A stretch of DNA of 64,000 nt, from contig CAYJKP010000002.1 in the NCBI GenBank assembly GCA_964371245.1, forward strand, positions 102,960-166,959. The letters are read 5' to 3'. The notes beneath the pieces were generated by a model. That model was given only the letters and a program-made list of their open reading frames with translations. It was not told the DNA's origin and ran no database searches. The position numbers were made by a program, and so were the translations under genes. This stretch comes from an uncultured Gammaproteobacteria bacterium (lineage in GTDB: Bacteria; Patescibacteriota; Patescibacteriia; JAHIZJ01). Positions 7,111 through 52,270 of this stretch are shown piece after piece. How positions within the stretch are numbered: the first letter of the stretch is position 1; each line of letters opens with the position of its first letter.

Positions 7111-7944
7111 TTAGACCTTATTGGATTGCGGAGGTCTGACCAGAAAAATAACCAAAAGACCGCAGATTATCGTACCAATCGAAAACCACTGGCTCGGATG
7201 CAGGTTGAAATATGTCAGCGGGTCAGACCCAATCAGGTCGGTCGCCCGCCAAAAATCGGCGACGAAGCGGAAAATTCCATAGAGGATAAAAAACAGTCCG
7301 CTCAACCAGCCGGGCCGGTCCGCAATAAATGGCGCCTTGCGTAATCGCCAAAAAATCATAAACACAACTAGCCCAAAAATAATTTCGTAAAAAGCCATGT
7401 CGTGCCGGATCGTCCCATCGATTAATTTTACTCCCCACGGCACCGTGGTTAGCTTCCCGAGATGGTCGTGGACGAAAAAACAGCCGAGCCGGCCCACAGC
7501 CAGGCCGAGCGGCAGCGAAAAGATGATTGTATCGGCATGCTCCCAGAACGGACGCTTCTTTACCCTTAAATAGAGCCAGCCAGCAAAAACGGCACCGGCT
7601 AAACCGCCATAGATGCCAAGTCCGCCCTCCCAGAGCTTAACAATATCGAGCGGCTGGTTTTGAAATTGCGACCATTCGTTCAAGACATAAAAAATCCGGG
7701 CGCCAACAAAAGCCGACACGATAATCACAATCGCTAAATCAAGTATTGTCGATACGGATTGGTTTTTCCGCTTCGCCTCGGACATACTTACTAGGACGCC
7801 GACCAATAAGCCGGCCGCCACCAATAAACCCCAAACATTTATGGATATTGGGCCGAGGCTGAAAGAATCTATTTCAAAATATGGAATCATAGGAACATCG
7901 AATAAATAAAAAAACGCGTTGTCAGCGTCTTTTCTTTTCTTCAA
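7111..7944 (-). CDS. lgt: Prolipoprotein diacylglyceryl transferase
   Basis: 277 aa polytopic protein. Lgt-like motifs VKLWEGGLGIYGGLAGAV and GRLGCFFVHDHLG (compare GRLGNFING/GGLSFHGG in characterised Lgt). Confidence 0.6.
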   Translation of the reverse strand: MKKRKDADNAFFYLFDVPMIPYFEIDSFSLGPISINVWGLLVAAGLLVGVLVSMSEAKRKNQSVSTILDLAIVIIVSAFVGARIFYVLNEWSQFQNQPLDIVKLWEGGLGIYGGLAGAVFAGWLYLRVKKRPFWEHADTIIFSLPLGLAVGRLGCFFVHDHLGKLTTVPWGVKLIDGTIRHDMAFYEIIFGLVVFMIFWRLRKAPFIADRPGWLSGLFFILYGIFRFVADFWRATDLIGSDPLTYFNLHPSQWFSIGTIICGLLVIFLVRPPQSNKV

Positions 7945-7960
7945 CTACCCCGAACACATG

Positions 7961-8131
7961 CTACCCGTGAGCTTTCAGAAAAATATGGAGATGCTCTTTT
8001 TCCATAATCGCCCCGCACTTGCAGCGCTTCGGCTCATCCGCGCTCGCCCAGCACCAGGGACAAACGTACCGCTCGCGTGAGAGCAAGCGGGCTTTGGTCG
8101 GTTGTCGGCGATAGGAAACTTTTACTTTCAT
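7961..8131 (-). CDS. Small Cys4 zinc-ribbon protein (hypothetical, 56 aa)
   Basis: Hand translation of the minus strand gives MKVKVSYRRQPTKARLLSRERYVCPWCWASADEPKRCKCGAIMEKEHLHIFLKAHG, with CPWC...CKCG as a zinc-ribbon signature. Below the ORF-track length cutoff. Confidence 0.3.
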   Translation of the reverse strand: MKVKVSYRRQPTKARLLSRERYVCPWCWASADEPKRCKCGAIMEKEHLHIFLKAHG

Positions 8132-8245: not shown

Positions 8246-9019
8246 TTAATTCAGCGTCGCCGTGTTTGTTTCGGTGAGATCGAGGTTTGCCGGATTTAGC
8301 TCTGGAATAAACTGGTCGAGAAGATCATAGAAATCTTGCTTGCTCAACGCACCCTCAATCCGATACCCATTAATAAACATTGTCGGCGTTCCCTGGACAT
8401 GAGCAGCCAATCCTTCTTGGTAATCTGTTTTTACCTGCTCGGCATATTTTTGGCCCTCAAGACAACCAGTAAACGTGGTGACGTTTAGTCCAGTTCCTTG
8501 GGCTAGGGTGATGAGACTCGCTTGATCATTCGCCTCCGGCTGCAACCAGTACCGATCGTGAAAAAGCCAAAACTTCCCTTGCTCGTGGGCGCATTTGCCC
8601 GCTTCCGCCAGTCGAACAGAGGTAGCGTCAGTTTGATCGACGAAATCCCGATAGATCAACCGTACACTCGTTCCGTATTCAGAGGCTATCTCGCGAACAA
8701 TTTGGCCGGTTGCCTGACACTCCGCGCAGGCAAAATCCGAGAACTCTACAATGACAACCAGGGGGTTTATTTCACCGATGGCCGGACGATCAGCTGCCTC
8801 AACCTCCCGGTGCCGATCGAGTGACAGTCGGTCCACCGCCGAAACTGTTTGCGATTGACGCGCGTCGGCTGGCGTTTTCGTATTAAATAAATGATTCGAC
8901 CAGAGGATGACGCCAAGACCGAGCAGGGACAATCCAATGACGAGCAACAACAACCCCCACCGACGGAATTGCCGTGATGAGGGTTTATTGATTTGACGTG
9001 TATTCGTTTGCTCGGCCAT
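8246..9019 (-). CDS. DsbA-family thiol:disulfide oxidoreductase, membrane-anchored
   Basis: 257 aa. N-terminal TM (WGLLLLVIGLSLLGLGVILW), then a thioredoxin fold with VVIVEFSDFACAECQ (E-F-x-D-F-x-CxxC). Confidence 0.7.
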   Translation of the reverse strand: MAEQTNTRQINKPSSRQFRRWGLLLLVIGLSLLGLGVILWSNHLFNTKTPADARQSQTVSAVDRLSLDRHREVEAADRPAIGEINPLVVIVEFSDFACAECQATGQIVREIASEYGTSVRLIYRDFVDQTDATSVRLAEAGKCAHEQGKFWLFHDRYWLQPEANDQASLITLAQGTGLNVTTFTGCLEGQKYAEQVKTDYQEGLAAHVQGTPTMFINGYRIEGALSKQDFYDLLDQFIPELNPANLDLTETNTATLN

Positions 9020-9069
9020 GCGAAACCTCCCTTTAACCGACTGTCTTCGCTCGGTTCTCGCGTCCGAGA

Positions 9070-9897
9070 TTACTTGCCAATGATCGCTTTTACCTGGGCT
9101 TCAAGCGACGCGTATGAAACTGCGCCACCGAGCTCGGTTCCGTTCAAGAAATTCCCCGGCGTACCCTGGACACCGTTGCTCGTTCCGACGGTCGTATCGT
9201 TTGTGACGACGCTGGCCGTTGTCTTATTGGTGATACAATCATTAAATTGTGTCGCGTTCAAGCCAAGATCCTTGGCAATCTGTTTGTACAGATCGGTGCC
9301 AAGCGTCGCCTGATTTTCATACAACTTGTCGCTATATTGCCAGAAAACGTCGTTGCCTTTTTGTTTGGCGGCACACTCGGCGGCAATGGCGGCCGGCGTC
9401 GCCTCAGGGTGAAAGCTCAGTGGAAAATTCTTGAACACCCAGCGGACATCATTCGGATATGCCTTCATCAGCTGTACCATCGTTTCATGAAACTTCTCGC
9501 AATACGGGCATTGGAAGTCCGACCATTCGAGAATCGTCACTTTGGCGTCTTTGTTGCCACGAACATGGTCCGTGTCGGCAATGGCATAGTCGGTGGTCAG
9601 TGGCGCGCTCGGTGCGGAATTTGTATTGGTGTTGGCATTTGCACCGGCGACTACCTTGTTGGCGTTGTTCGTGTTGCTATTTTTTGCGGCTGTTTCGGGG
9701 AAACCGCCTTTAAAATATACGCCCAGCATGATAAAAAATCCGATTGAAAACAAAAGCATCATTCCGCCGACTAAACCAAAGATAAAGCTGGCTTTGGCAG
9801 ATAAGTTGGCGAAAATGCCTTTTACGCCTGATGGGCCAGACGGATTTTCTGGTCGGTCTTGACCGTGATAACCTTCAGCATATTGCATAGTACGCAT
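9070..9897 (-). CDS. DsbA-family thiol:disulfide oxidoreductase, membrane-anchored (second copy)
   Basis: 275 aa. TM (FIFGLVGGMMLLFSIGFFIMLGVYF), then ILEWSDFQCPYCEKFH (CPYC active site). Confidence 0.7.
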   Translation of the reverse strand: MRTMQYAEGYHGQDRPENPSGPSGVKGIFANLSAKASFIFGLVGGMMLLFSIGFFIMLGVYFKGGFPETAAKNSNTNNANKVVAGANANTNTNSAPSAPLTTDYAIADTDHVRGNKDAKVTILEWSDFQCPYCEKFHETMVQLMKAYPNDVRWVFKNFPLSFHPEATPAAIAAECAAKQKGNDVFWQYSDKLYENQATLGTDLYKQIAKDLGLNATQFNDCITNKTTASVVTNDTTVGTSNGVQGTPGNFLNGTELGGAVSYASLEAQVKAIIGK

Positions 9898-10075
9898 TCT
9901 CCTTTAAATTAAGAGTTAAGCGGCGTAACTAATTGTTTATAGTACGTGAATTTTATTAACTTGTCAAATAGATTTTTCTCCACAGTCCGCCTGTTTGCCA
10001 AACCCTCAGCTCACTTTCAGCTTTCGTATAAAAAAATAACAAAAAATGAGCCCGCATTAACATTTTTTGTTTGAG

Positions 10076-10609
10076 TTACTTTTTACGATACTTACGTATG
10101 ACGATAACAATTGCCGCCGCGCCGAGTAACGGCCAGACGATCATGAAAATGGTAAGATACAGCGTGCTCTTTTTTTGCAGGCCATTACCCTCCTGTTCAG
10201 GGTGCGCCAGATACTCATAATATCGGTCAAGGACTTCCTGGGGTGAATCGCAACGCACGGCTTGGCACTGAATGATTGTGTTCTCAATCTCGCTTGTGAT
10301 GGCGGCGCTATACCCGACATATACGTTTTTTCCGGCAAAGACGGTCGGCGTCTGTCGACTCGGCATCTGATAGAGTGTCAGTAGATCTTCAAAAATTGCC
10401 CGGTTATCTGAATCTGTGCTCACGTCAAAGGTCGCTAAAATGATACCATATTTATTTTTGAAGCCGGACAGCGTATCGTCCATCGATTGGCAGCTCGGGC
10501 AACCGCTTTCATAGAAATAAAATACTTCCACCGTTTCTTTCGCCTGGGCGGGTCGAACTGAGAGTGCCGCCGCCACGACGATGAGACTGATGAGTAGGTA
10601 TTTCTTCAT
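10076..10609 (-). CDS. Exported thioredoxin-like CxxC protein with a C-terminal TM anchor
   Basis: 177 aa. Signal peptide MKKYLLISLIVVAAALSVRPAQA, CPSC motif (VFYFYESGCPSCQ), C-terminal TM LYLTIFMIVWPLLGAAAIVIVI followed by RKYRKK. Confidence 0.55.
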   Translation of the reverse strand: MKKYLLISLIVVAAALSVRPAQAKETVEVFYFYESGCPSCQSMDDTLSGFKNKYGIILATFDVSTDSDNRAIFEDLLTLYQMPSRQTPTVFAGKNVYVGYSAAITSEIENTIIQCQAVRCDSPQEVLDRYYEYLAHPEQEGNGLQKKSTLYLTIFMIVWPLLGAAAIVIVIRKYRKK

Positions 10610-10610: not shown

Positions 10611-12290
10611 TTAAAAACGGACTACTTGTTTAGGTTGCAGTGGATGCGTCTGGTCGTTCCGGCGAGGCGGTTGCGTTGGCTGAGGCCTCGGTCGCTGGTT
10701 ATTGTTCGGCTTATTCTTGGGACGTTGGTTCGGTGCGGGTGGCGGACCGGGACGTTTCATTTGCTTAAACAATACCGGCTCTTGCTTGAGCGCCGTCTGC
10801 AAGCTGATCGCCTGTGGGACCGCCGGCCCGTCTTCGACAATTTGAACGCCCGTTTCTTCGTCAGCATCGTTGCTGGCCAGATTTATTCTCACCCGTTGAT
10901 GATCACCGTTTGGTCTCGGCTGGACGTCGTTCCGCGGTCGACTGTTGGCTGGGGTCGTCTCGTTCTGGTCTTCATCATCGTCGCCGTTCTCGGTCGGTTC
11001 AATGCCGGCCCAACGGGATATTTTTTCCTCAACCACTTGGCGGGCGGTTGAATACCGTTCCCGGGAAACCTTGATAATTTTTTCATGAGTCTCTTCTGCC
11101 TCGGCCGTATAGAGCGGTGGCAGCCCTCGGGCGGAAAACGGCTCCGAGGCAACGCCATCAATCATGAGCTTGAGATACATTTCAAACTTGGTCAGATTAA
11201 CAAGATCGTTTTGCATGAAAACAGGCTCGAACTCCTTTTCGAGAAACTCAGCGTCAGCGGCGCCCACCCGGAAACAGACTAAGGTACCGACGTTCCCGAA
11301 AACCGCCGCCTGAACCGTTTCATCAAGCTGCTCAATATATTGATGGGCAATAATCAGATCAAGCCGATATTTTCGGGCTTCGGACAGGATATTCGCAAAG
11401 CTTTCCGTGGCAAAATTCTGAAACTCATCGACGTACAGAAAGAAATCGCGGCGCTCTAATTCCGGCATATCGACCCGACTCATCGCGGCGAGCTGGAGTT
11501 TTGTGATCATCATCGCGCCAAGCAAGGCCGCATTATCCTCGCCAATCCGTCCTTTTGACAGATTCAGCAAGAGGATTTTCCCGCTGTCCATAATATCGCG
11601 CATGTCAATCGAGCTTTTTGTTTGACCGACAATATTTCGGATGATCGAGCTCGATAAAAATTGCCCGACTTTGTTCTGGATCGGAGAAATCGCCTCGGTC
11701 CGAAATTGATTGCTATAAGCGGCATATTCATCAAGCCAAAACGCCTTGAGGATCGGATCGGTTAGGCGGGTGACAACTTTTTTTCGGTATTTGTTATCGA
11801 CGAGCAGACGAGTGATGCCGAGCAGAGTTGAGCCGGGGTACTCAAGCAACGATAAAACCGTGTTACGGAGTACATACTCCAACCGCGGGCCCCAGGAGTC
11901 CGCCCAGATTTTTTTGAAAACGCCCACCAATCCCGAGGCCACGAGGTGTCGGTGAACGGGATTCACGGATTCCAGGACGTTAAAGGCGATCGGATAATCA
12001 ATATCAGCCGGATTGAAATAGATCACGTCGTTCGTTCGATTAGCCGGAATAAAATCAAGGAGTTTTTCGACCAGGTCGCCGTGCGGATCCACGACCGCGA
12101 GCCCGTGACCGGCCTGGATGTCGGAAACGATCATGTTCTCGAGCAGCGTCGTTTTTCCCATTCCGGTTTTTCCGATGACATACATGTGCCGGCGCCGATC
12201 ATCCAGTTTAATGCCAAAACGCCGTTTTTGATTACGGAAGTTTGTTTCTCCAAAAAGGGTAATATAGTTTTTTGGCTCGGGCATTGTCAT
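10611..12290 (-). CDS. TrwB/TraD/VirD4-like P-loop ATPase (type IV coupling-protein family) with no obvious TM segment and a Pro/Gln-rich C-terminal tail
   Basis: 559 aa. Walker A plus family motif HMYVIGKTGMGKTTLLENMI...LAVVDPHGDL (TrwB has ...GATGTGKS...IVDPNGD). Walker B FFLYVDEFQNF. LIIAHQYIEQL Q-motif. Low-complexity PPAPNQRPKNKPNNNQRPRPQPTQPP tail. Confidence 0.55.
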   Translation of the reverse strand: MTMPEPKNYITLFGETNFRNQKRRFGIKLDDRRRHMYVIGKTGMGKTTLLENMIVSDIQAGHGLAVVDPHGDLVEKLLDFIPANRTNDVIYFNPADIDYPIAFNVLESVNPVHRHLVASGLVGVFKKIWADSWGPRLEYVLRNTVLSLLEYPGSTLLGITRLLVDNKYRKKVVTRLTDPILKAFWLDEYAAYSNQFRTEAISPIQNKVGQFLSSSIIRNIVGQTKSSIDMRDIMDSGKILLLNLSKGRIGEDNAALLGAMMITKLQLAAMSRVDMPELERRDFFLYVDEFQNFATESFANILSEARKYRLDLIIAHQYIEQLDETVQAAVFGNVGTLVCFRVGAADAEFLEKEFEPVFMQNDLVNLTKFEMYLKLMIDGVASEPFSARGLPPLYTAEAEETHEKIIKVSRERYSTARQVVEEKISRWAGIEPTENGDDDEDQNETTPANSRPRNDVQPRPNGDHQRVRINLASNDADEETGVQIVEDGPAVPQAISLQTALKQEPVLFKQMKRPGPPPAPNQRPKNKPNNNQRPRPQPTQPPRRNDQTHPLQPKQVVRF

Positions 12291-12293: not shown

Positions 12294-13814
12294 CTAGGCA
12301 AAAGGCAAATTGGGTGGCGGTTGACCAGCCGGCGGTTTCGATGGTTCGGCCGGAGGCGGGGTGGCTGGGACAGCAGTCGGCGGCACAGCAAAAGGCGGCG
12401 GTGTTTGCGGCTGGGGCGTAGCCGGCAGAGCTGCTGGTGGCGCCTGTTGAGGTTGCGTCGGCAGGGAGGTTGGCGGTGGCGCGGCCGGGGTGACAGATGG
12501 CTGGAAGGGCCGAAACGGTGAGCCAAATTCATGCATCGGTAAGCCGGCCGGCGGTTCGCCGCGTTTGCTTTCGATCTTGCTCACCAGAGGCGCTTTCACG
12601 GTTAAAACCGGGAAGTGGAAAATGGTCGCCAGCTCCTCGATATTCATAATAATACCTTTTCCGGCCAGGCGCTGTTTATAGGTTTTCATCAACCGCCGCT
12701 GACGACGGGCCAGGCGAGCTTTATTAAAGAAGATGAAATTACTTTTTGTAAAAGTAACCTTGTCAGGCTTGAAGCTGTTCATATTCACGGTCGCGAATTG
12801 ATTTAAGGCACCAAAAATTGCGTTGATACCAGTTCCTTTGTTCGTCAGCGCCTTTTCAGCCAAATAGCAATAGCGGAATTTCGTTTCATAGGCACGCTTC
12901 GCCATTTTCACCTGCATCGCTTCAACAATCCCCTTTTCGCCGGGCGTCAGCTGCATCATCCAGTTTTTCGGCTTAGTCTGTTCCGGCCTGGTTTCGCCCG
13001 GGGCAAAGAGCGAGGCAGTCAAGGTTTCATAGGTTCCCTTGGCTACTCCACCGACCGGCCCGAGGAGTGGCTTGGCTTTGCTTTGTTCACCGATCATTTT
13101 ATTGATAATTGTACGGCCTTGCTCCATCCAGCCAGTCGAATCAATCGGCCGGATAACAAGCTGGATCCAAATCTGCTCGCCCTGCCTGAGCTTGCCTAAT
13201 ATTTCCAGCAAGCCCGCCATCGGATCAGCAAGCTGTTGCGACAAGCTGTGCTCAAAATCGACATAGGTGCGGATTGGAAACGCATTCGGCTTTGAAAACA
13301 CAATGCTCGATCCGTAGAGATCATATTTATCGTTCGGGAATTTATCCGGTGAGCCTTTCGTATAATCATCGACCTCGGTAATAACGGAGTCGGGATATTG
13401 GGCATAGAAAGCGGACTCGACCAGATCACGGAACTGCACCGGCGTCCGGATCATAAATTGAATATATCCGCTGATGCTGGCCAGCTCGAGACTAAGGGTT
13501 AACTGGACCTTCCCTTTAAAATATTTCTCGATAATGTTCGGTTTTGAGAGTATGCCCGAAAACTGCGCGTAGATTTGTTCAATCGCTTTCAGATTCGGCT
13601 CGATTTCCCGCGGGACGTCAATGGCCAAGAGGACAAACTTCTGCGAGGCGATAAATCTTTGTTTGAGCGTCAGCTGCCAATACGAAATGCCGATGACAAA
13701 GATTGAGGCGACTAACATCACCCACCCGCCACTAATAAAAAACTGCCAGAAGTAACCGAAGGGCAGGAGACTCCCAATAACTGAAGGCTCACTGACGTCA
13801 ATCACGAATGGCAT
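12294..13814 (-). CDS. Membrane protein partner of the TrwB-like ATPase (hypothetical; N-terminal TM, Pro-rich C-terminal tail)
   Basis: Start moved to MPFVID (ATG complement at 13812-13814) so it does not overlap the upstream gene. TM helix GGWVMLVASIFVIGISYW. C-terminus is about 80 aa of P/A/T/Q-rich low complexity. Confidence 0.45.
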   Translation of the reverse strand: MPFVIDVSEPSVIGSLLPFGYFWQFFISGGWVMLVASIFVIGISYWQLTLKQRFIASQKFVLLAIDVPREIEPNLKAIEQIYAQFSGILSKPNIIEKYFKGKVQLTLSLELASISGYIQFMIRTPVQFRDLVESAFYAQYPDSVITEVDDYTKGSPDKFPNDKYDLYGSSIVFSKPNAFPIRTYVDFEHSLSQQLADPMAGLLEILGKLRQGEQIWIQLVIRPIDSTGWMEQGRTIINKMIGEQSKAKPLLGPVGGVAKGTYETLTASLFAPGETRPEQTKPKNWMMQLTPGEKGIVEAMQVKMAKRAYETKFRYCYLAEKALTNKGTGINAIFGALNQFATVNMNSFKPDKVTFTKSNFIFFNKARLARRQRRLMKTYKQRLAGKGIIMNIEELATIFHFPVLTVKAPLVSKIESKRGEPPAGLPMHEFGSPFRPFQPSVTPAAPPPTSLPTQPQQAPPAALPATPQPQTPPPFAVPPTAVPATPPPAEPSKPPAGQPPPNLPFA

Positions 13815-13851
13815 AAAACATACGTATAATTGTGGTTTAGGTGTTTGTTTC

Positions 13852-15030
13852 TTACGACTGGACTGGTTCGGCTGGCGCTTTCTCAGCGAGACGGAAGTGT
13901 CCATCCGATGTTTTCGTAAACCGTTTCTGATCGGTTAGCGCTAAATGAATGGTATTTTTTTTCACCAGCCGCTGCTTCAGGACCGCTTCGACGATTTGTT
14001 CGCGGCTCAGCGGCTCTGACGACTTCTTTAATATTTCGACGATAACGTCAGCGACGACGCCCGGCTTGTACCCCCATTCTTTCAGGGCATAAATGCCACG
14101 GCCGACGAGGACATAGCGGTCATTCAATATCAATTCGTTGTGGATGGTCGGTGGGTAGGCTTTTCGGTTGTCAAAATGAATTTTATTAATCCGTTCGGCA
14201 ATCTTCGTAAAATGCATCGGCTTGCCTTCTTTTTTCAGAATCAAGTATATCTTATCGTTCATCCGCCGCGGTACGATCGTGCCCCATTCGCTTAAGCCGT
14301 AGTCGCCAAAGGGATTGCGACTAATTTTCTGGCTCATGGTGGCGTACCCGATGAGTGCCTGGTCGTTCGCCTCCGGCTCGCTTGGCCCGGCTGGGTGCTT
14401 CTGCCGGTAGGATTGGATCAATTCTTTTTCAGTCATCGGCTCGCCCTTGGCCGTAATGTTGGCGACCAGCCGGTCGATCACCTGACGCACCTGCTCAAGC
14501 GAACAGGTCGGAAGATACCAGGAAGCGCAAAAATAATCATTCTCTGGCTGGGCGATGAATTGCTTCGTCAACAGCCGAGAGAGGATGAACATCACCGACT
14601 GCCGGGCGATCGGCGTATCAGTCGAAAATTCAAAAAGTTGCTCGAGGAGTCGATCTTTTGAGATAGCCCCGCCGTCCCGTTCGATCACGGTTTTAATCGT
14701 TTGATCAATCGGCTCGATCAGTTCCCGAAAGTTCTTTAAACCGCGAATTTTTTTCACGGCTGTGCTTTCGATTTGCCGGATCCGTTCTCGAGTCAAGTTA
14801 TAGAATTGGCCGATTTCCTCCAACGTCTGCTTTGTTTTGCCATTCAACCCATACCGGCGTCGCAAGACGTCTTCTTCTTTGTTCGTGAGCAATTTCAAGA
14901 GCGCAGCCACTGCCTCGGGCGGGTTGAATTCGCGCATTTGTTCAGTCTGCTTGCTGAGAATTACTTTGTCGAGAATTGAATCTTCCATAAAAATGTATTT
15001 TTTTCCCAAATATTGAAGCAAAAACGGCAA
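13852..15030 (-). CDS. Protein with an N-terminal sigma70 region-4-like HTH and a long C-terminal domain (hypothetical regulator)
   Basis: 392 aa. LRRRYGLNGKTKQTLEEIGQFYNLTRERIRQIESTAVKKIRGL matches the sigma70 region 4.2 HTH consensus. The remaining 300 aa are unassigned. Confidence 0.45.
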   Translation of the reverse strand: MPFLLQYLGKKYIFMEDSILDKVILSKQTEQMREFNPPEAVAALLKLLTNKEEDVLRRRYGLNGKTKQTLEEIGQFYNLTRERIRQIESTAVKKIRGLKNFRELIEPIDQTIKTVIERDGGAISKDRLLEQLFEFSTDTPIARQSVMFILSRLLTKQFIAQPENDYFCASWYLPTCSLEQVRQVIDRLVANITAKGEPMTEKELIQSYRQKHPAGPSEPEANDQALIGYATMSQKISRNPFGDYGLSEWGTIVPRRMNDKIYLILKKEGKPMHFTKIAERINKIHFDNRKAYPPTIHNELILNDRYVLVGRGIYALKEWGYKPGVVADVIVEILKKSSEPLSREQIVEAVLKQRLVKKNTIHLALTDQKRFTKTSDGHFRLAEKAPAEPVQS

Positions 15031-15170
15031 TGAACGATATTACTATACTTTTGGTACTCTGTCAACAATATTTCTCCTCTATCATTAGTATAGCATAACA
15101 TTGATAAAGTGTCAAGCTTTTGTATTCAAATATAAAATTGCCTTCTTGGCAACTTGAATATCAGACTTTC

Positions 15171-16079
15171 CTATCTTGCTTGGCGCCGCGTTTTCAATTT
15201 TTGCCAAACCACCAGGAGCGGGCTGGCCACAAAGATCGATGAATACGTTCCGGCGATGATTCCGATGATCATGGCAAAGACAAACCACCGAATAGAGTCG
15301 CCGCCGAAAAAATAGAGGGCGGTAAGGACGAAGAGTGTGGTTAATGATGTGTTGAGTGAGCGAGCCAGAGTCTGGTTGATCGCTTGATTGATTGTTTCCT
15401 CAAAATTATTGGCCGCGCCACGCAACATATTTTCCCTGATTCGATCGAAGACGACGATCGTGTCATGGACGGAAAAGCCAAGGATCGTTAAGAGGGCGGT
15501 GATAAAGAGCGCGCCCACCTCAACCTGATAGACGTAGCCGAGAAAAGCGTAGACGCCGAGAATGACAATCATATCGTGCACCAAGGCGATCACGGCTGCC
15601 ACGCCCATAACCCAGCTCGGGATGATCGTCGTTTTTGATATTTTCCGAAAAGCGATGGTGATATAGATGATGATTCCAAGCATGACAAAAATTACGGCTT
15701 GGACGGCGCGGGACTGTAATTCCTTGCCGATCGTCGGTCCAACCGATTCAAAGCTTTCTTCTTGAACATTGCCATAGGCCTGGTTCAGTCCATCAAGGAG
15801 GGCGGCCCGTTTCTCATTATCGATTGTTTGGGATCGGATCGTTATTCCTTGATCTCCCGAGGGTTGGATGGACTCGGTTGGCAAACCTAGCTCTTTTAGT
15901 TTTGCTTGGAGATCCTGGGGACTCGGTCGATTGGCAGAAAAATTTAGCTGCCAGATCGTACCACCAGTGAAATCAATATTCGGTTTCAGGCCGCCAAGAG
16001 AAAGGAAAACGATACCAGGAACAAGAATGATGCCTGAGAGCACGAACCACCAATATTTTCTTTGGATAATTCGATACAT
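15171..16079 (-). CDS. secF: Protein translocase subunit SecF
   Basis: 302 aa with six TM helices and a SecD/SecF family C-terminal TM bundle. Adjacent to secD. Confidence 0.85.
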   Translation of the reverse strand: MYRIIQRKYWWFVLSGIILVPGIVFLSLGGLKPNIDFTGGTIWQLNFSANRPSPQDLQAKLKELGLPTESIQPSGDQGITIRSQTIDNEKRAALLDGLNQAYGNVQEESFESVGPTIGKELQSRAVQAVIFVMLGIIIYITIAFRKISKTTIIPSWVMGVAAVIALVHDMIVILGVYAFLGYVYQVEVGALFITALLTILGFSVHDTIVVFDRIRENMLRGAANNFEETINQAINQTLARSLNTSLTTLFVLTALYFFGGDSIRWFVFAMIIGIIAGTYSSIFVASPLLVVWQKLKTRRQAR

Positions 16080-17743
16080 TAGTGAAATATACCAAGTAAT
16101 CGTTTATGCTTAACCAGCCACTCGCCCGCCAACAGCCGTAACAGCGTGCGCGTAACCGTGATGGCCGTGAACATGCTGACGAGAATGCCGATCGCCAGTG
16201 TCAGAGCAAAACCTTTAATCAAGCTGGTTCCAAACCAGGTCAGAATCAAACAGGTGATCAAACTGGACGCGTTCGAATCGCGGATCGACAGCCAGGCGCG
16301 CCGGAAACCCTCTTCGATCGCGCTCGCCAACGGTTTTCCAAGGCGGATTTCTTCCTTTAAACGCTCGAAGATCAAGACATTCGCGTCAACCGCCATGCCA
16401 ATAGATAAGATGAATCCGGCCACACCAGCCAGGGTGAGCGTAACAGGCCAAAGTTTAAAAATCGCCAACGAAATAAGCGAATAGATTCCCAGAGCGATAA
16501 TCGCCAGCAAGCCCGGGAAGCGATAATAGACAATCATGAAAAAGGCGACTAACGCAATCCCGATCAAGCCGGCAAACAAGCTTTTTTGAACGGATAATTT
16601 TCCCAGCGAAGCGCCGATATTCTGTTGGTTGACTAGGCTAATCGGCACCGGCAGCGCGCCGGAGTTCAACCGTTGGGCCAGGGTTTTGGCCTCGTCGAGC
16701 GTGAAGGTACCGGTAATAACCGCTTCACCAGAATCGATTTCCGTTTCCACCCGCGGCGTGCTGATCGGCGAGCCGTCAAGATAAATGGCCACGATCTTGC
16801 CCACATTCCGCTTGGTAATTTCACCAAAGAGTTTCTTCCCTTCGTCGTTAAAAACCAGCGTCACTTGCGGCGCGCTCGTATTCGGATCAAATTGGACATC
16901 GGCCCGCTTGAGCTGTTTGCCGGTCAGTCCGGTATTCACAAACTCGGGCGTAGTCGAAGCCTCGGTTGACTCTTTCGTAAACAAAATGTGGCTGGCCTGG
17001 TCTTCAACTGTTTTTTGATCGCCCTCACCCGTTGTGCGCTCGTCGGTTTTCTTAATGATATGCCAACCGTAGCTGGTTTCGACCAGCTGCGGATAAGTTT
17101 CACCGACCTTCATATTATCAAAAACGACGTTTTCAAATTCGGCCACCATTGTCCCTTTAGCGAAATAACCAAGGTCGCCGCCAGTCTCGCTCGTGGAAGT
17201 ATCTTGGGAATACTGTTTCGCCAGCGCCGCAAAATCTGCATTTGGCGCCAAGGCCAATTGTAATACTTCCTCGGCTTTTTTCTTTTGTTCGGCATTTAAG
17301 GCCTCGATCGCCTTTTTTTGTTCGTCGGTCAGTGGTTCAGGCGCCTTCTCTTCGCGGAACTCGAGCAGCGGGGTTTCGCCGATCCGCTTGATCGCATCAT
17401 TGATATCAAAAACGCCGGCAATCTCCACAATCACCCGCCACTTGCCACCGACTTGGCTGGTTTGGATAACCGGCTCAGACACCCCAAACGCATTGATCCG
17501 GCGCTCAATCACGTCGCGCACTCCATCAACGGCGTTCTTCTGGTCGGCTTTTTGGAGCTGCGAAACATCCGCTTCGTAGACTAGCCGCGACCCGCCCTGG
17601 AGATCAAGGCCGAGCTGAACGTTGCCCCGAACCCAATTGCCGATTTTCAGATCCGGACTCTTCGGAAAATCAAAATAGCCGGCGGCTAAAGCCAGCGCGA
17701 GAATAATACCGAATGTCATCCAAACCTTCTTCCGTGGAGTCAT
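16079..17743 (-). CDS. secD: Protein translocase subunit SecD carrying an inserted parvulin-like (PpiC-type) PPIase domain
   Basis: 554 aa. SecD P1 motif GLDLQGGSRLVY and C-terminal TM core. The roughly 130-aa insert contains ADFAALAKQYSQDTSTSETGGDLGYFAKGTMVAEFENVVFDNMKVGETYPQLVETSYGWHIIKK, which matches the parvulin/PrsA signature. Confidence 0.85.
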   Translation of the reverse strand: MTPRKKVWMTFGIILALALAAGYFDFPKSPDLKIGNWVRGNVQLGLDLQGGSRLVYEADVSQLQKADQKNAVDGVRDVIERRINAFGVSEPVIQTSQVGGKWRVIVEIAGVFDINDAIKRIGETPLLEFREEKAPEPLTDEQKKAIEALNAEQKKKAEEVLQLALAPNADFAALAKQYSQDTSTSETGGDLGYFAKGTMVAEFENVVFDNMKVGETYPQLVETSYGWHIIKKTDERTTGEGDQKTVEDQASHILFTKESTEASTTPEFVNTGLTGKQLKRADVQFDPNTSAPQVTLVFNDEGKKLFGEITKRNVGKIVAIYLDGSPISTPRVETEIDSGEAVITGTFTLDEAKTLAQRLNSGALPVPISLVNQQNIGASLGKLSVQKSLFAGLIGIALVAFFMIVYYRFPGLLAIIALGIYSLISLAIFKLWPVTLTLAGVAGFILSIGMAVDANVLIFERLKEEIRLGKPLASAIEEGFRRAWLSIRDSNASSLITCLILTWFGTSLIKGFALTLAIGILVSMFTAITVTRTLLRLLAGEWLVKHKRLLGIFH

Positions 17744-24620: not shown

Positions 24621-27600
24621 TTATTGCGTGATTACGACACTGCCGTCAAAAAGGCTATTGCAATACGCACCCGCACCTTGACACTGCCCCTGATTTTGAC
24701 AGATATTCAGCGGGGTCGTGCCACCGCGACAGGCGCCCACGCAGGTACCACCGCCACAGTTCAGATCGCTCGAGCAATCAGTGCCGTCGTTGTCGCAATA
24801 CCCGCTGCCCTTGTCCCAGTTATCTTCGACAAAGACACGGACAAAGCAGGTATCGGGACCGCCGCCGGCTGCTCCGCAATCCCCATAGGTATAGTCATGT
24901 GTCAAGGTATGATACGGCCCATTCGGGTCTGACCGCGGCGGGATACCGGGATTCTTTGGAAATGATTCCCAGTGGTTATTGCCCCAGTCAACAACAAACT
25001 TCTTGATCGGCATTTGCTCGGGGTCGACCATGGAATTGAAGGTGACCGTGGCCGTCCCTGATCCATTCTTGATTTGCACCGGCCCGGTCCGGCCGTTAAT
25101 CTTAATATTGAACACTGTTGGTTGCGCCCAGCAAAAATCAAACGGAAAACCGGTGATGTCATTCGGTCGATTATCCGACATGCCGTTTGAACCGTTGTGC
25201 ACTTTGCATTGATCCATTGCCTCAAATGCATCCGAGTAGGCGGCCTTGAATGAATTCAGGCTGAGGTCCGGCTCATACTTGGCCTCGGTCGGGTCTGGCG
25301 CTGAATCAGGCAAACCATTGCAGTATTGTAGTTGTTTGCTTTGGCCATGCTGCGCTTGGATATGGCCGAGCGTGCAATTATCACCCGATCGGATACCGCC
25401 CTCGCACTCCCAGTCAGCGCATTCGGCAACAACTCCGGGTGCGCACGCGCCCGGCACCTCACAACAATCCGCCGCATCCTGGCCGACCCGGCACGGATTA
25501 CCCAGTAACTCGCCGCCCGTGCAAATACCATTGTATTGGATACATGACCCGCCGGAAATACCCGTGCAATTTGAGTCAGAGGCGCAGGCTTGGCCGCACC
25601 AATAGCCACAACCGGGTGGATTACCGTTTTCATTCCAACCGCAGATCGCCTCGGCGCAAGAACCTTCAGGGCAATCCCCCTGTCCTGAGCACGGTCGTCC
25701 AGCGTTAGTGCCACCGACGCAGACTTTATCGACACAGGAACTTCCAACTTCGCATGAACCGCTACCGCACGGTAAGCCGCTCGTGCTGCATCGTTCCTTC
25801 TCTTCGCAAACCCCACCGTTACATACGCCGGCGTCACAACGGGCGTTATTTAAGCGGCAGATATCAGCGTTTCCGAGACAGGCGGCACCGCCGGGACATG
25901 GATTGGTCGGCTGATTATTTGAGGCACATAGCGTCGTGGCTTGATTGGAGCAGACACCGTCGGCGCAGAAGCCGCTTCGACAATCGCATTGGCCAACTGC
26001 ATCATAGGTGCACTTTGAATTGGCATTACAGGAATAACCGGCTGGACAGGCATTAGCCGGCTGACAGGTCTGTGTGTGGTCGCCCGAGCAGCGTGGCCGA
26101 TTCCAACATACTTGGGCTGGGTTCGCGTACAGGCAGAATATTCCGGCATTACAATTAGAATCATCAATGCACTGCGTCCCAGGATAATCGCCCCAGCCGT
26201 CGACATTATTATCGCAATATTTCGAACAATTCTGGCCACCGTTGCATTCCTCCCCCGTATCACGGCATATTGAAATGTTGACGCAGCTTCCTTCGTTCGG
26301 ACAGTCGCAGGCTGCCGGCACATTCGAGACACATTTCTTCAGTGCGCCCTGGGTCAGACATGTGGACCCAGTCGGACAATTGTTGGCAATATTACACTGG
26401 TCGCTACCCGCGTCCGTTCCCCCGACGCACCGTTGGGCGACACAGGCATTACCGCCGCCCGGGCAGGCGCCGAGGCCGCACGGGATGGTTGGATCATTAC
26501 TGCAGCGCTGGCTCAGCTCGCAGACCTCGCCAGCCGCGCAGCCGCACGGCGTCATCGGACTTGGGTTGTCGGGGTCAATGCTAATACAGAGCTGACCCGA
26601 ACACACGCCATTGCCGATATTACACTCGTCATTGTTTTCACACCCAGTTCCTCTGAAGGGGTATTGCGGGTCATTGGCTTTGAAGCAGCCCATCGTCGTG
26701 ATGTCGACGCATTTGCCGTCAGACCATACCCAGACGCCATAGACATCAGCAAAGATCCGCTGGATGCGACGCAGCCCTAAGCCCCCGCCCGTGGCCGTGT
26801 AATTTGTCGGCGGCTGGTTGGGTGGTGGCGGTTCGCCTGGGGTTAATGGGCCGCTGAATTGTTCCGTCGTTGTATAGCGATTTGGGAAGACGTCATCACA
26901 AATGGTTATTTCCGATCGGTCATAACGGAAGCCAGTCCACCAGCCCCAGCTATACAACCGTTTATTGGCTTTATGCTTGCATGAATATGGAACGCCAGCG
27001 CGCGGATAGCTAAGATAATCCACCTCATCAAAGCCGTGTTCAACGCCCCGGTACGGCGACCAGCCCCAGTCCTGAGCGAAGGGCGAGAATGAACCGCCGC
27101 CTGTTTGCTGCTGCGGATCCCACCATAGGTAGATGATTGGTTGGTATTTTGAGCCCAGGTCTTTCGTCATTTCATACGGATTGCCCCAGACTGACGTGTA
27201 GTCTGTGTCCCAGGTCGCCGGATCGCCCGGCACGTTGGTCACGTTATTCCCAGCGTGTCCAACTGAACCAGGATAGGTCAAACTGCCGTATGGATTCGCA
27301 TCATCGTCAAAGGTAACGCCAAGATCCCAGATCTGGGAATAATTCCCCTTGATCCGTTCGGCCCAAGCTTTGTTCGCGCCGCTCGGATCGACTGTCTGGC
27401 CGATCACGTCGCAACGGAACGCGAGCACCTCGCCGATGTTTCCCGGCCAGGCTTCGCCGAGATGATTATGGCTCAGCCAACCGTCAAATGGTTGCCAGAC
27501 ACCCGGTGCGATTGGGTTGAGGCCGTTTTGGTGGTTCGAATCCCACCAGTTATACTGGAGGTTTTCACCGCCGCCGCCGCTGTGCGACCAGTATTCACAG

Positions 27601-30600
27601 ACATCGGAATCCGGTATTTCGTTCGGCACACACACGTATAAACATTTGTCTTGATGGCCGCCGCCGCGGACGGCTTTTTCGCAGAGCTTGCGATGATAGC
27701 CAAGCTCTTCACAGGAATAGTGGCTGGCGTAATTGCAATTGCCGTTGGAAAGACCATATGGTCGTCGGAATTCATAGAATGACCCTTGGAGACAGTAGTA
27801 GAGCGGCGCGTCGCCAAAATAACCGACCAGCTGATCCGTATCATCGGCCTCGCCGGAAATGATATCAACCGGCCACCACTGCAAACAAACGCTGCGATTT
27901 TGCGGGTCGGTTTCGAGACAGTAGCCTTTCCAGCCGCGATAAATCTTCCGGGCCGTACCGGTGGTCTTGGTATAGTCGCATGTTAACGAATTCGATTCCG
28001 GATAGAGTCGACAGGATCTGACCACAAACCGCGGATCGTTCGGAAGCTCGGGCGGCATCTGCGTGGATTTCTTTTCCAGCAAGGTCTGGAACATCACGTC
28101 ATCAACCTGGAATTTTTGCAGCCCGGCGTTCCCGCCCGCGTCCACAATACTGAGATAGGTATTTTTAAATACGCCACTGACGACCATCGCATTACCAAGC
28201 GGCAAGGTAAAGATCTGCCAATTCATCGTGGCCGTAACCGTGCCAAAAACCTGACATGGCCCCGCATCATCGTTATAACAAAGCTGAACTTTTATCTTAG
28301 AATCTTGATCAGCCCGCAATTTCAGGCTTATAACCAACGGCTGGTTATCAAATATGAGCGAATCGAGATTAATCTTCGCTCCCGAATCGGCTCCGGTCAA
28401 ACCGCCTACCTCCATCACCCAATTCTGTTTTGTCGGATCAAGCGGGTCTTCGACAGCCTTCAGGGCATTCGGCGGGTTGATGTTCCGCGGCTCCCACGGT
28501 GAGGAGTTTTTAAACTGAAAGTCGTAATTCGGTAAATTCATACCGATGCCGATTTCTTGCATCGATCCGGTTGGGTAATACCCATGGATGACTTGGCAGA
28601 CGTTGCTCTCGCCGACACACTGATCGCAATAGGTCGGATTATTGAGATCGCAAGCCGTGTTATTTGGGCATACGCCGCCGGGGCAATCGTCTGGTTTTTG
28701 GCAGAGCAGTCCGTCCTTGTCGCCGCCCTGACAGATGCCATCGCGCCAGCAGACCGTGTTCGGATCTTCGCTGCATCGCCAATTATAGCCGACCCGCGCA
28801 TAGCCTGAATAATTTACGGAGTTGTCAACTTCCGTTTTGTGATCAAACGTCAAGTCAGTCGGGTGGTTCGGAGGTGTCACTAGTCGATTCATGTACTCGA
28901 CGGTCGGGGTGGCATTTTCAAATTTCGGCGTTCGAATGCAATGTGAAGTCAAACCGCAATCGGCATCGATGAGACAAGGTCGCGAGGGATCGTTTTCACA
29001 TTGCCCTTCGCCGACCGGCTTGATACATTGGCCGGACGTGCCTAGCTGACGGCAATTTCCAATATCATAACAGGTCAATTCCTTCGAACCATCGCTTTTC
29101 TCCACTTCGTAGCTCGTCTTGCAATACAACCACTGATTACAGACCCGATCACGATCAACTTTATAGACGCTGTTGGAATCGGCCGTGCAACCGCCGCCAG
29201 TGCACGTTTCGGGCGTTCCTCGGTTTGTATCCAGTTTCGCGTATGTCAAATCGCTATCATAGGTGAGACCCTGTGAATTAGTGGTGTCGTTGAATAGAAT
29301 GCAGCCCTCGTCTTTATTAACCACCCCGGCACAACTCGCCGAATCGATAGTGCTATCAATATAGTAGTAGGGCTGGCAGCCAGACAGATAATCAGGCGGG
29401 AGAGCGCCGTTCTGGTAGGGCCGGCACTGTTGATCCGTCCGGTAAAACTCGCCTTGGTCGTTATATTCAGCCCGACAATTCGCGTTGCAGCCTTGGAAAA
29501 CACAGGTGCTTTGAGGACAGTCGGCGTTGATTTTACAATTCTGTCCCCCGCTCGGGCCAGCTAAACAGACGCCATCTGGCGTTACTTTATCCGGTGACGG
29601 CGTTTGGGGATCGCGGTACTCACTGCAACCGCTGGCTCCATTTTGACATTTACCAACCCAATACTCGGTACATTTCTGACCTTCCGGACACTGACCGTCG
29701 TCTTGGCATATTCTTTCCGCGCAGTAGCCGTCGTTCGAACTGTTCGCGTCGGCGCAGCCATATGCGGCATCGTTTGGATCGGCGTCAGAATCGCAGGCTT
29801 GCCCGGCGCGTATTCCGCCATAGCAGACTTCCGTCAAGTCGGAGCATAAACCGTCGTTATTGCCACCCGCCTGATCACAGCCATAGAGTGGATCCTTCGG
29901 ATCAACTTGCGAATTACATTTTTCTCCGGCCCGATAGCCACCGCGGCACGTTTCTTGCAGCCGTGGTCCGCAGACCTTCGTCGGCATTGGCGATTCTGGA
30001 TATTGCTCGCAAAGGCCGCCGTCACATGACGCGAGATCGCCCGGCCCGAAACACGCCACGCCCGGATTGTTTCCGCCAATACAGGAGTATTTTTGGACGG
30101 GGCAAAATTTATCCGTCCCACTCTTCAGCCAAGCATCATAGACCTCGCCTTGATATTTGAGACTCTTTCGAAAATCGCAGACTTGGGCGTTTGGCTGCTT
30201 AAACTGCGTAAAACTTCCGGAATCTGCGCCAATCTGGAATTGATCACAGAATGTTTCTTCTTTCGTACAGAGTGTTTGGTCGTATTCGTCGGGATTATTG
30301 ATGAGATAGGTTGTCTTAAACTTCGTTACCCGGCCTTCCACGTCAAAGCTCGGCAAACCGAGGCCTTCGCAGCCTTTCGCTTTGGCTTGGCATTTGTACT
30401 TCGCCGCGTTGACGATCGGCCGGACATTGTCCGCCTCTACTCTTACGCCTTTGTCTGCCGGCTCATAAGGAAAGGCGGTGGTCGAGTTGTTCGTTTCGAT
30501 GGCGGCGGTACAACCGACTTTCTCAGGTCGGCAGAGATTCGTGAAACTCTGGATATATTGATCGTTTCCTTCACTGTCCGTATAGAGCGAGCAACCAACC

Positions 30601-33600
30601 CATTGCGCCGGGCATTCTTGGTAGGTTTTATATCGGAGATAGACGCTATCGCGGGTTTCCCAAACCGTAATATTATCGATGAAAAAGCCGGCGCCCGCTT
30701 CAATCGTCAGCACCTCGGCCGGGTCAGGCGCGCCAATAAAATGGGCTGGGCCAAGAACATAATGATTCCAATTCTCGTTGGTTGCGGTCACGCCCGCGAC
30801 TGGCACAAAGTCGATTGCTGGATTCGGTGCAAATTTCACCGTGATCTGGGCGTCGTCCGCTTCAGCCTTCGCCCAGAATTCAATCATGTAATCCTTGCCG
30901 TCTTCAACCAGCTCGCTGACGGCCGTTGACATACTGGGGGTTACTTTGGCTGAGCCGCCGCCGGCCTTCAGCGATTCAGTGCTCCAGGTGACATTACCAG
31001 CCCAGCCAGCCGTATCGCCGTCATCAAAATTATCCGTGATAATCTTCCGGATATTGTATCCGGTGCTCCCCCGATACTCACGACAGGCCGCCTGGTTAGC
31101 CGGACAGCGTATGCCCTGATCGGGGATCGCATTGTAAATTGTGTTATCGAGGGTGTTCCTGAGCGGGTGGCAGTCTTCCGAGCAGGTGATGGTGTTAAAC
31201 ATCGGGCAATAGTAACTGTTGCCACTCTGATCATAGTATTGGGTGCAGCCGAAATCATTCGGGTCGCAACCACACGCCCCGCCCGGCGTCATTTCCGGCG
31301 GCGCATTCGTACCGCCCTTCAGGTCTTCGGCTACCAGTTCAAATCCATTAACATCGTCGCCTTCCCAGCGATAGTACGTCGCGCAGGTCGGATTCGGCTG
31401 TTCACAGCGGCGGATGGCGCTGTAATACTCAAGCCCCTCGCCGCCCTGGGCGACGATATCAAGATTGGTGTATTCCTCACAACCGACATAAGCTGCGTCG
31501 CAGGTTTTCCCCGTCGTGGCGATAAAAGTCGTCGACAATATTCCCGACCGGTCAACCAAGGCCTGGTCGGTGCCGTTTGATACGGGCATCTGCTGATAAT
31601 CTTTGCACCCGACAAATTCAGCCGGACAATAGTCGTCCGAGGTTACCACCGCCGGCACCTTGTCGCCTTTTTCATCAGGCGTATACATGTCGCACCCGAT
31701 TTCATCTACCCGGCAAGCGATCGAATCCTTCGACAAGCTGACGCTCACCTGGTCAAATTGTCCGCCGCTTAATAAAACCCTGATAAACGCCGCGTCCGGT
31801 TTATCGGCCTCAACCCCAAAGGTAACAAAATCCCATCGGCCGGTATTTGTTTCACGCTGGGCGCGCGGATCGGCGCCAACGACCGTCAGGTCACAGTCGG
31901 CAACCACGGCCCGGTTCTTATCACGACATTCGGTGAGGAGCGGGGTAGCGCCGCCGCCTTTCACCCAAGCCGAGACATCATAGCGCGTACCATAGACGAT
32001 CGGCACGTCCTGATATCCGCCGGAGCCGGAGTAATAATCCCCATATCCTTGAGCGGCATCGATGGCGGTACCAACCCAGCCGTCGGCCAGATGATCGCCA
32101 GCGACATAATTGTCATTCGTGTCGTCTTTATAATAATCATGCCCGCTGTCGATACTAAAGCTGGAATTCGAAATGTAATTTTCCGCCTTATTTTTCAAAT
32201 ACGCTTGGTTAGCCGTGTCGTACATCGCGTGGGCCGTGACGTCGCCCAATTCAAGCTGTACGCCATCGAGCGTGATCTCGCAATTCGGAGTAATCTTAAA
32301 AGCTACCTGGTTTGGATTTGCGGTCGGGGCAGGCGGATCGGTTTCTCCAACCTCGCCAAACTGACCGGTCACGACAACTCTCGACCAGCCGTCAGCGCTC
32401 ACCCGGTGGGAATCCAGCGGATCGACGTAATTCATCCAAGCCCCGCCGGTGTGGTTTCCGCCGATCTCAACGTGGACATTGTCGCATGCGCCTTTTGCAA
32501 AGAAAGAAGCGGTAAATTTCTTATGATAGACCGGCGACTCAGTATCGAAATAATACGCCACCTCGCCGCTTGTCCGAACGGCATAGGTACCGTCCGTGGC
32601 ATCGGTTGTTGCGAAGGCGTCACTGGCGAACTCCCATTTCCACTGCGAGTAATCAGCCGCGAAGACGTCTGGATCATTATCGTCGACTATCCCGGCAAAC
32701 GTTTCAAAGCTCGAATTGGCCGCGAGATTACTCCCGGCGATAACAGGAATGTATTCCGTGCAACCGCGGTCGCCACTCGAGCACTTCGTGGCATTATTAT
32801 CCAGACGGATCTGGTCGCCGGCAGCGAGATAATCAGGCTCGGCCGGGTTGACCAAATGCTCCGGGGAGCTGCAGACAAAGCCTTTTTCCTTATTGTCATA
32901 ATTCTGGCAGTACCACTGACAGCCGGCATTATCCGCCGAACAGGAATCGTGATTGACCGTGCTTTCAATGAAAGATGCTTCCTTTTTCTTTGAATCAACA
33001 AAAGTTTGACAGGTATTTTCATAGGCCTGGCAAGCAGTTCCGGAAAACCGCCAGATCGGTTTTTCCTCAGCGCAGTAGCCATAGAACAAGCAGGTGCCAT
33101 CTTCGGCTTCCTGTATGCAGGTACGTTCATCCGCGCAATAGCTCCCCCGTTCAACCTGCCGTGACGGCGTATCGCGAGAATCAATCACGCCGTCATTGTT
33201 CGTGTCGTCTAACTGGACTAGCGCATCGGCCACCAGTTGCTCGCCCGGCCCTTCCTTTTTGCAATATGTTTCAGGCGCCTTCAACACCCAATTTGGGTCA
33301 ATAAGATGATAAAACGGATTGTCTATTTGAACGCCTTGGGGGTTGGTCCATTTTTCATCATCATAGAGATCAACCAGTTCTTTCAGTCCAAATCCCTGGG
33401 CCGGTACAACATAATTTTTGATATAGAGCGCGGCCGCTTCCCAGGTCGAGGGGATGACGCGATATTTGCGCAGGATAACCAAGCTGCGGTAGGGATAGCC
33501 GTTGGTATATTCCGGCTCTTGTCCATTTTGATCAAAACCAAACGTGCCGGTACTGTTGAGCGAGCCTTCTTCAAGGGCTTGCTTCACCGTGATCCGGCGG

Positions 33601-48756: not shown

Positions 48757-48768
48757 AAATTATAAAAG

Positions 48769-52255: not shown

Positions 52256-52270
52256 AAATGTATTGATTAT

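Follow-up and report, generated by a model that had tools for sequence, protein, structure and literature searches.

A 64-kb stretch of DNA from an ultra-small bacterium of the Patescibacteria (Candidate Phyla Radiation, CPR), hereafter called the window, carries three consecutive minus-strand open reading frames (ORFs) just upstream of lgt. Each encodes a thioredoxin-fold protein with a CxxC motif and a membrane anchor. In the direction of transcription these are C (10076-10609; 177 amino acids), a minimal glutaredoxin/thioredoxin-fold protein assigned from its hydropathy, cysteine positions and AlphaFold2 model; B (9070-9897; 275 amino acids), a DsbA/BdbD-like thiol-disulfide oxidoreductase by Pfam; and A (8246-9019; 257 amino acids), which Pfam identifies as a divergent DsbA-like paralogue. 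The lgt gene itself (7111-7944, minus strand; Pfam LGT, 1.7e-57) encodes prolipoprotein diacylglyceryl transferase. A preliminary description of this DNA had already recognized three consecutive membrane-anchored CxxC proteins beside lgt, and Pfam searches and hydropathy analysis of the ORFs agree with it. The active-site motif that it ascribed to two of them is indeed common to A and B, although the real form is E-x-x-D-F-x-CxxC, one residue longer than was written.

The order C-B-A-lgt recurs in five other Patescibacteria assemblies (loci L001/L002, L089, L086, L087 and L088), where it is part of a longer shared order that reads SecD, SecF, a sigma/HARE-HTH gene, DUF8128, a TrwB/VirD4-like ATPase, C, B, A and lgt. 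Three of these loci, L086, L087 and L088, come from more distant relatives within the clade, with ATPases that are 71-78% identical to the ATPase of the window. Identities to the same three relatives are 61-74% for SecF, 49-64% for B, 50-56% for lgt, 37-43% for A and 37-38% for C, making A and C the fastest-evolving pair in the block. A and B are 31% identical to each other over the catalytic domain and are therefore old paralogues. Because of this divergence, and because the same order is found in independent assemblies, the arrangement is neither a chance grouping nor an assembly artefact, and duplication of one gene during assembly, which the preliminary description had named as a finding that would undo it, was ruled out.

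Protein B matches the Pfam models Thioredoxin_4 (PF13462; 3.2e-31, 109.2 bits, cut-off 23.2) and DSBA (PF01323; 2.3e-16, 60.6 bits, cut-off 25.6). It is predicted to have an N-terminal transmembrane (TM) segment at approximately residues 34-66, followed by a low-complexity stalk rich in Asn, Thr and Ala. The active site lies in the stretch WSDFQCPYC, the cis-proline loop reads GTPG, and a second pair of cysteines is formed by C175 and C221. The true start of the protein is probably the second ATG, at 9888, which would yield 272 amino acids; the distance from an AAGGAG box to the first ATG is 1 nucleotide (nt) and to the second ∼10 nt, and the B orthologue begins MQYAEGY. Among orthologues the active site is always CP[YF]C or CSYC, and in the clade alignment it is CPYC with a single instance of CSYC. 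These features suggest that B is probably the conserved, catalytic oxidase of the trio.

Protein A also scores far above the cut-offs for Thioredoxin_4 (4.7e-24, 85.9 bits; cut-off 23.2) and DSBA (1.5e-15, 58.0 bits; cut-off 25.6). Its predicted topology comprises a single N-terminal TM segment at approximately residues 19-45 with five Arg or Lys residues ahead of it. The active-site stretch is FSDFACAEC, the cis-proline loop is GTPT, and the second cysteine pair is C143/C186. Unlike that of B, however, the catalytic motif of A varies widely in the clade alignment: it is CAEC in the window, CEEC in L001 and L089, CTGC in L086, SQYS in L087 and SETS in L088. Thus the proline is missing from the dipeptide across the entire clade, and in two of five clade genomes the CxxC motif has become SxxS, while the second cysteine pair and the cis-proline are retained despite loss of the active site. 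This pattern indicates that the catalytic motif of A is under relaxed constraint in the clade and has been lost outright in some relatives. The different dipeptides had been taken to imply different redox potentials or substrate classes, a view that is weaker than that of relaxed constraint: with CxxC converted to SxxS in two orthologues, CAEC resembles active-site decay more than it does a tuned redox potential.

Metagenome contigs were scanned with an alignment of A, which yielded 80 loci. The family signature was derived from 88 distinct DsbA-like sequences drawn from these metagenome loci and from the clade loci. Both the second cysteine pair (C143/C186 in A) and the cis-proline, in the form 'TP', are present in all 88. 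At the active site, 82 sequences have CxxC, four have CxxS and two have SxxS. The usual dipeptide of the family conforms to CP[YFVAH]C, and CAEC, CEEC, CTGC, SQYS and SETS occur only in the A orthologues of the clade. This orthogroup alone lacks the proline, and both of its catalytic cysteines are gone in two genomes.

The sequences of this set point to a DsbA/BdbD-like group with an extra disulfide that is presumably structural and would be formed by the second cysteine pair. This pair aligns with no cysteines in BdbD, 3gyk or 4pwo. Four loci (L121, L129, L132 and L138) carry CPxS in place of CPxC; the nucleophilic cysteine is kept and the resolving cysteine is lost, so that the family includes monothiol variants. 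Separately, four-TM ORFs of 205 amino acids upstream of DsbA-like genes at L102 and L132 were considered as candidates for VKOR or DsbB and were rejected, as each has a single cysteine.

The nearest solved relatives of A and B by sequence are BdbD, ScsC and actinobacterial DsbA-like proteins; for B alone they are ScsC, BdbD and other DsbA-like proteins. A and B resemble Bacillus subtilis BdbD, which is among their best matches in the Protein Data Bank (PDB), and Staphylococcus aureus DsbA in having a thioredoxin fold with a helical insertion, in being tethered to the membrane, in the Thr-cisPro loop of both proteins and in the CPxC motif of B. The dipeptide of the S. aureus enzyme is CPYC, as in B, while that of BdbD is CPSC, as in C. 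However, no gene for a BdbC or DsbB partner lies near A and B, the two proteins carry an extra invariant cysteine pair in the helical region, and the dipeptide of A is acidic, lacks proline and decays to SxxS in orthologues.

The best PDB matches of B also include the ScsC structures 4xvw, 6nen/6mhh and 4gxz, all of which are CPYC proteins like B. ScsC, DsbG and DsbC are proteins of the isomerase or reductase type with CPYC or CGYC motifs, and ScsB or DsbD keeps them in the reduced state. Unlike them, B has a TM anchor and a low-complexity stalk and lacks an N-terminal dimerization or trimerization domain, and neither ScsB nor DsbD is encoded nearby. Its NCBIfam scores are likewise far from those of DsbG (23.4 versus a cut-off of 124) and DsbC (17 versus a cut-off of 215).

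Protein C is of a different kind. It is predicted to have a signal peptide ending in AQA|KE, a GCPSC active site, a C-terminal TM segment at residues 148-174 and a basic tail, RKYRKK. Besides the active-site cysteines C37 and C40 and the cis-proline P88, it has an extra C-x4-C motif formed by C115 and C120. Its AlphaFold2 model, which is confident (predicted local distance difference test score 87.9), shows a glutaredoxin-like beta-alpha-beta-alpha-beta-beta-alpha core, one extra helix after the C-x4-C motif and the TM helix, and fold searches with C return only generic thioredoxin and glutaredoxin matches. Profile searches of the sort that the preliminary description had proposed serve A and B well and place C no more closely than within the thioredoxin clan, where its Pfam matches are weak and its family corresponds to no specific model. 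Specifically, C scores 28.2 bits against TraF (PF13728; cut-off 23), over profile positions 126-201 of 224, about a third of the model, and 20.7 bits against Glutaredoxin (PF00462), below the cut-off of 22.9.

The sub-threshold match to Glutaredoxin is what favours reading the trio as cytoplasmic thioredoxins or glutaredoxins, another outcome that had been named in advance as fatal to the extracytoplasmic interpretation. Strong predicted anchors are present in A and B, and C has both a signal peptide and a TM segment. Together with its sub-threshold score, these two elements exclude C as a cytoplasmic glutaredoxin. With the 31% identity between A and B and the recurrence of the arrangement in independent assemblies also counted, the chance that the trio is cytoplasmic, or that A and B are an assembly duplication, is vanishingly small, and the extracytoplasmic placement proposed earlier is supported as a prediction.

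An exhaustive HMMER search for relatives of C revealed a large family, with 849 representative clusters at E ≤ 1e-3. Most members are 165-190 amino acids long and have the same layout as C, and the commonest active-site motif is CPHC. In a 36-member alignment, C37, C40, P88, C115 and C120 are invariant. Pfam models recognize this family inconsistently: Glutaredoxin matches 25 of the 36 members and TraF matches 13, and Thioredoxin_2, DSBA and Thioredoxin_4 are also hit, all about equally weakly. An orthologue that is 90% identical to C, from a Patescibacteria metagenome-assembled genome, bears the NCBI name 'conjugal transfer protein TraF'. Because the matches of the family are spread over several thioredoxin-clan models with similarly low scores, this public name is, as judged from these profile scores, an artefact of a marginal Pfam match. 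On the same kind of evidence, C belongs to a separate, uncurated family and is not a DsbA.

In about two dozen relatives of C, one to three copies of the domain are fused N-terminally to a polytopic domain with six TM segments. Three of six multi-domain relatives match SfLAP or DsbD_TM in Pfam, only one of them above the cut-off. The fused membrane domain has a cysteine in an NPC motif of TM1 in all 19 sequences that cover this column, and a cysteine in an ELxCT motif of TM4 in 25 of 25. Such a two-cysteine pattern is a hallmark of CcdA/DsbD electron conduits. These fusions suggest that the usual partner of the C family is a CcdA-type transporter.

The fusions have the conduit-plus-client-domain architecture known from CcdA/DsbD-dependent thioredoxins (ResA, StoA, CcmG and TlpA) and from ScsB-type fusions (PMC3322552). 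A general framework for CcdA/DsbD electron conduits has been described (PMC5403849 and PMC3322552). Like the client proteins, C is predicted to be an extracytoplasmic thioredoxin fold with a CxxC motif and a cis-proline. It differs from them in being a single-domain protein with one C-terminal TM segment and in its extra C-x4-C motif, which has no counterpart in those proteins.

A related arrangement was observed in a distant member of the Patescibacteria (L003, 7001-10497), where the beginning of a separate, CcdA-like SfLAP gene overlaps with a single-domain C-family gene. Next in order are a gene for a CCG-domain (HdrB/LutA-like) protein and a LUD/4Fe-4S (LutB-like) gene. Together these genes may encode a thiol relay of the membrane that is linked to Fe-S proteins in the cytoplasm.

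Directly upstream of C on the minus strand is the TrwB/VirD4-like ATPase gene (10611-12290; Pfam TrwB_AAD_bind, 2.8e-12), whose stop codon is separated from the ATG of C by a single nucleotide (tttTAAgATG). This junction raises the possibility that C, like TraF or TrbB, assists a machine for type IV secretion or DNA transfer together with DUF8128 and the ATPase, for example as a folding factor for a pilin or channel component. The adjacency is kept in the five other assemblies, at ATPase identities down to 71%, and the position of C immediately after a VirD4-like ATPase, its marginal PF13728 score above the cut-off and the NCBI name of its orthologue all recall TraF and TrbB of the F plasmid, thioredoxin-fold proteins that act in conjugative pilus assembly. 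TraF is a thioredoxin-fold protein without a CxxC motif, a property shared by the SxxS orthologues of A.

Other observations speak against this role. The window ATPase has thousands of close homologues, which are annotated as Patescibacteria, and its use as a query identified 80 other Patescibacteria species-level loci. In nearly all of these DUF8128 is directly upstream of the ATPase, and SecF and, in most, a sigma-like gene are found further upstream where the flank permits, but none of the 80 has a gene resembling C, A or B immediately after the ATPase. The tight C-ATPase junction is therefore specific to the clade of the window. Moreover, C misses the NCBIfam cut-offs by about 100-200 bits (28.6 versus 232.25 for the TraF-like model TIGR02740, and 26 versus 132 for the TrbB model TIGR02738), its family matches TraF no more often than it matches Glutaredoxin, Thioredoxin_2 and DSBA, and distant family members reside in unrelated gene contexts. 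C also differs from TraF and TrbB in its membrane anchor and its extra C-x4-C motif. We consequently regard a secretion-accessory role for C as unlikely.

The DUF8128-ATPase pair merits mention in its own right. Across the 80 loci (L006-L085), which correspond to the 12294-17743 region of the window, the ATPase is 52-79% identical to that of the window. The pair looks like a core, uncharacterized CPR machine, with a sigma70_r4/HARE-HTH gene upstream in most cases where the flank is long enough. The ATPase itself has no TM segment, and the membrane segment is contributed by DUF8128.

Within the trio, the 178-nt gap between C and B contains a sigma-70-like promoter match on the minus strand (9939-9967; TTGACA-17-TACTAT) that agrees with the consensus at 10 of 12 positions. 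This match, a pattern match alone and by itself no evidence of function, suggests that B and A form their own transcription unit. The scan for terminators and promoters gave weak pattern matches only.

A more widespread association is that with lgt. In every clade locus this gene comes after the DsbA-like genes, and outside the clade it lies within 600 nt after DsbA-like genes in seven of the 42 loci with enough downstream sequence. All seven contain two or three DsbA-like paralogues in tandem, with intergenic gaps of 6-76 nt. Tandem DsbA-like genes are present in only eight of the 37 loci that have flanking sequence on both sides. The recurrent unit is thus a tandem of DsbA-like genes followed by lgt. 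In the window, a 56-amino-acid zinc-ribbon-like ORF (CPWC...CKC; 7961-8131, minus strand) is located between A and lgt. Gene calling in L087 places a counterpart, also of 56 amino acids, in the corresponding position (10197-10367), and the two align over their full length.

Such linkage could mean that the DsbA-like paralogues cooperate with Lgt as lipoproteins mature, for instance by controlling the availability or oxidation of the lipobox cysteine before diacylglyceryl transfer. The gene order in the clade and in the seven tandem loci fits this proposal, as does the presence of lspA in the window (55204-55674). Nevertheless, a 301-nt gap and the small ORF separate A from lgt in the window, no lgt is nearby in 35 of the 42 loci outside the clade, and genes for envelope biogenesis often cluster without a direct mechanistic link. 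No DsbA is known to have a role in lipoprotein maturation. A mechanistic tie to Lgt appears unlikely, and the genes lie in an envelope-biogenesis neighborhood with lgt as its recurrent member.

The preliminary description had instead linked the trio to a giant cysteine-rich protein, placing the genes immediately upstream of it and proposing an oxidative-folding module. The protein in question (24621-34676, minus strand) has 3351 amino acids, 192 cysteines and an N-terminal anchor. Its cysteines occur mostly in pairs 4-7 residues apart and are densest in the C-terminal third, and its sole Pfam match is CBM_4_9. In its strongest form the proposal holds that A, B and C are all oxidases of one module, with differing redox potentials, dedicated to this surface protein. 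The abundance and pairing of its cysteines, its anchor, its location on the same strand as the trio and a preference for even cysteine counts in exported proteins of the window (see below) are compatible with such a module.

The positional argument, however, does not hold. In the direction of transcription the trio is ∼14 kb downstream of the giant protein, with ten genes, including SecD and SecF, between them, and DsbA-like tandems adjoin lgt elsewhere in differing upstream contexts, making lgt and not the giant protein the recurrent neighbor. Nor are the three proteins uniform, as CxxC is lost from A orthologues in two genomes and C comes from a different family with fusions of the CcdA/DsbD type. 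A dedicated module of three oxidases is about as unlikely as a tie to Lgt. A specific link between the trio and the giant protein is unsupported, although as a general substrate the protein is an obvious candidate.

The interpretation that we prefer assigns the three proteins to non-equivalent roles: B as an oxidase of the BdbD/DsbA type, A as a degenerating accessory or narrow-specificity paralogue, and C as a relay or reductase-type protein of an uncurated, CcdA-associated family. We give this reading a probability of roughly 0.6. It is built on family membership, predicted topology, the conservation and loss of motifs, synteny and domain fusions, and from these we infer the direction of electron flow, the substrates and the partners of B and C. 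The region would then constitute extracytoplasmic thiol-redox equipment of a CPR bacterium with three distinct parts. Most likely, B would act as a membrane-tethered CPYC oxidase that forms disulfides in exported proteins emerging from the Sec channel. For A, the most likely function would be that of a thioredoxin-fold protein with an accessory or substrate-binding part, or of an enzyme of narrow specificity, and the role of a second general oxidase is less likely. C would most likely be a thioredoxin-fold protein of the relay, reductase or isomerase type and not an oxidase, because its multi-domain relatives are fused to two-cysteine membrane conduits of the CcdA/DsbD type.

Several observations weigh against these assignments. 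The positive-inside rule leaves the orientation of B unsettled, since the net charge is alike on both sides of its TM segment; its predicted extracytoplasmic placement is based on two features, the stalk and the second cysteine pair, which is invariant. A keeps an intact CxxC motif in this genome and may be active. The fused relatives that link C to CcdA-type domains are only 22-33% identical to it, and the family consensus CPHC is ill suited to a strongly reducing role. CPHC is the dipeptide of the oxidase EcDsbA, and known reductases carry CxPC or CPxC motifs, unlike the CPHC of the C family.

Redox partners are also missing from the window and from the available flanks of the clade loci, which counts against the preferred reading as well. 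The preliminary description had noted that the window contains no DsbB or VKOR, and indeed the Pfam scan of window ORFs, which covered all but a minority of those that are small or TM-free, detected no DsbB, VKOR or CcdA/DsbD. A CcdA-like profile built from the fusions has no match in window ORFs of at least 60 amino acids and none at the clade loci. Polytopic ORFs containing a CxxC motif are likewise absent, both from the window and from the neighborhood of the DsbA-like genes at 15 related loci. Some proteins of the DsbA type, such as S. aureus DsbA, work without a membrane re-oxidant.

In the general framework, oxidases depend on DsbB, DsbI or VKOR for their recycling, and isomerases and reductases on DsbD, ScsB or CcdA (PMC5403849). 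Full-text literature searches returned nothing on disulfide-bond formation in the Patescibacteria or CPR. Some indication that oxidative folding takes place in this organism comes from the parity of cysteine counts in the window. Among exported ORFs, 11 have an even number of cysteines and two an odd number, compared with eight even and 11 odd among ORFs without a TM segment (Fisher p = 0.028), in a small sample that was sorted with a crude classifier and that includes the giant protein with 192 cysteines. This bias is a hint of oxidative folding at the level of the organism.

The general picture of CPR bacteria is that they have no capacity for respiration (PMC5220378). Because organisms without a respiratory chain would also be without a quinone pool for DsbB or VKOR, a further scheme can be imagined in which C, with its invariant C-x4-C motif, is part of a quinone-independent route for recycling the DsbA-like oxidase. 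The trio might then amount to a new type of system that generates or relays disulfides by itself. C could exchange disulfides with B, or could be linked to a conduit of the CcdA type and to CCG/Fe-S proteins of the cytoplasm, as the L003 cluster suggests. We consider this scheme improbable, even more so than the ties to Lgt, the giant protein or the ATPase, and the trio is best described as a modest variation on a well-known system in which no new principle is demonstrated.

Several other features of the window were recorded. A membrane-anchored cytochrome b5-like haem-binding protein (58848-59279, minus strand) adjoins a 100-amino-acid membrane protein (58537-58839, minus strand) with weak PepSY_TM and cytochrome b561 matches; the two may form an extracytoplasmic electron-transfer pair in an organism that is expected to lack respiration. 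The SecD protein (16079-17743, minus strand) has an inserted peptidyl-prolyl isomerase domain of the PPIC type at approximately residues 143-235, which is also present in L001 and L086-L088. The leucyl-tRNA synthetase (39423-43007, minus strand; 1194 amino acids) contains Ham1p_like (residues 286-360) and NUDIX (residues 632-746) matches, an unusual insertion. Finally, a Mg-chelatase gene of the ComM/YifB type (45813-53830, minus strand) is split into an N-terminal part (53135-53830) and a remainder (45813-46643) by a ∼6.5-kb island of low GC content (35-43% versus ∼51%). In this island lie genes for a large serine recombinase (46556-48244) and a SNase+Excalibur nuclease (51251-52255) as well as small cysteine-rich exported ORFs, and it looks like an integrated mobile element.

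CPR organisms rely on large surface proteins rich in cysteine, and the prevailing view is that they lack quinones. For such organisms the trio offers three handles: a conserved oxidase of the DsbA type with a second cysteine pair specific to its family, a paralogue that is losing its catalytic cysteines, and a widespread, unannotated thioredoxin-fold family that has been mislabelled 'TraF' and is tied by fusions to conduits of the CcdA type. In practice the locus yields a corrected annotation and a question that can be tested, namely what re-oxidizes B.

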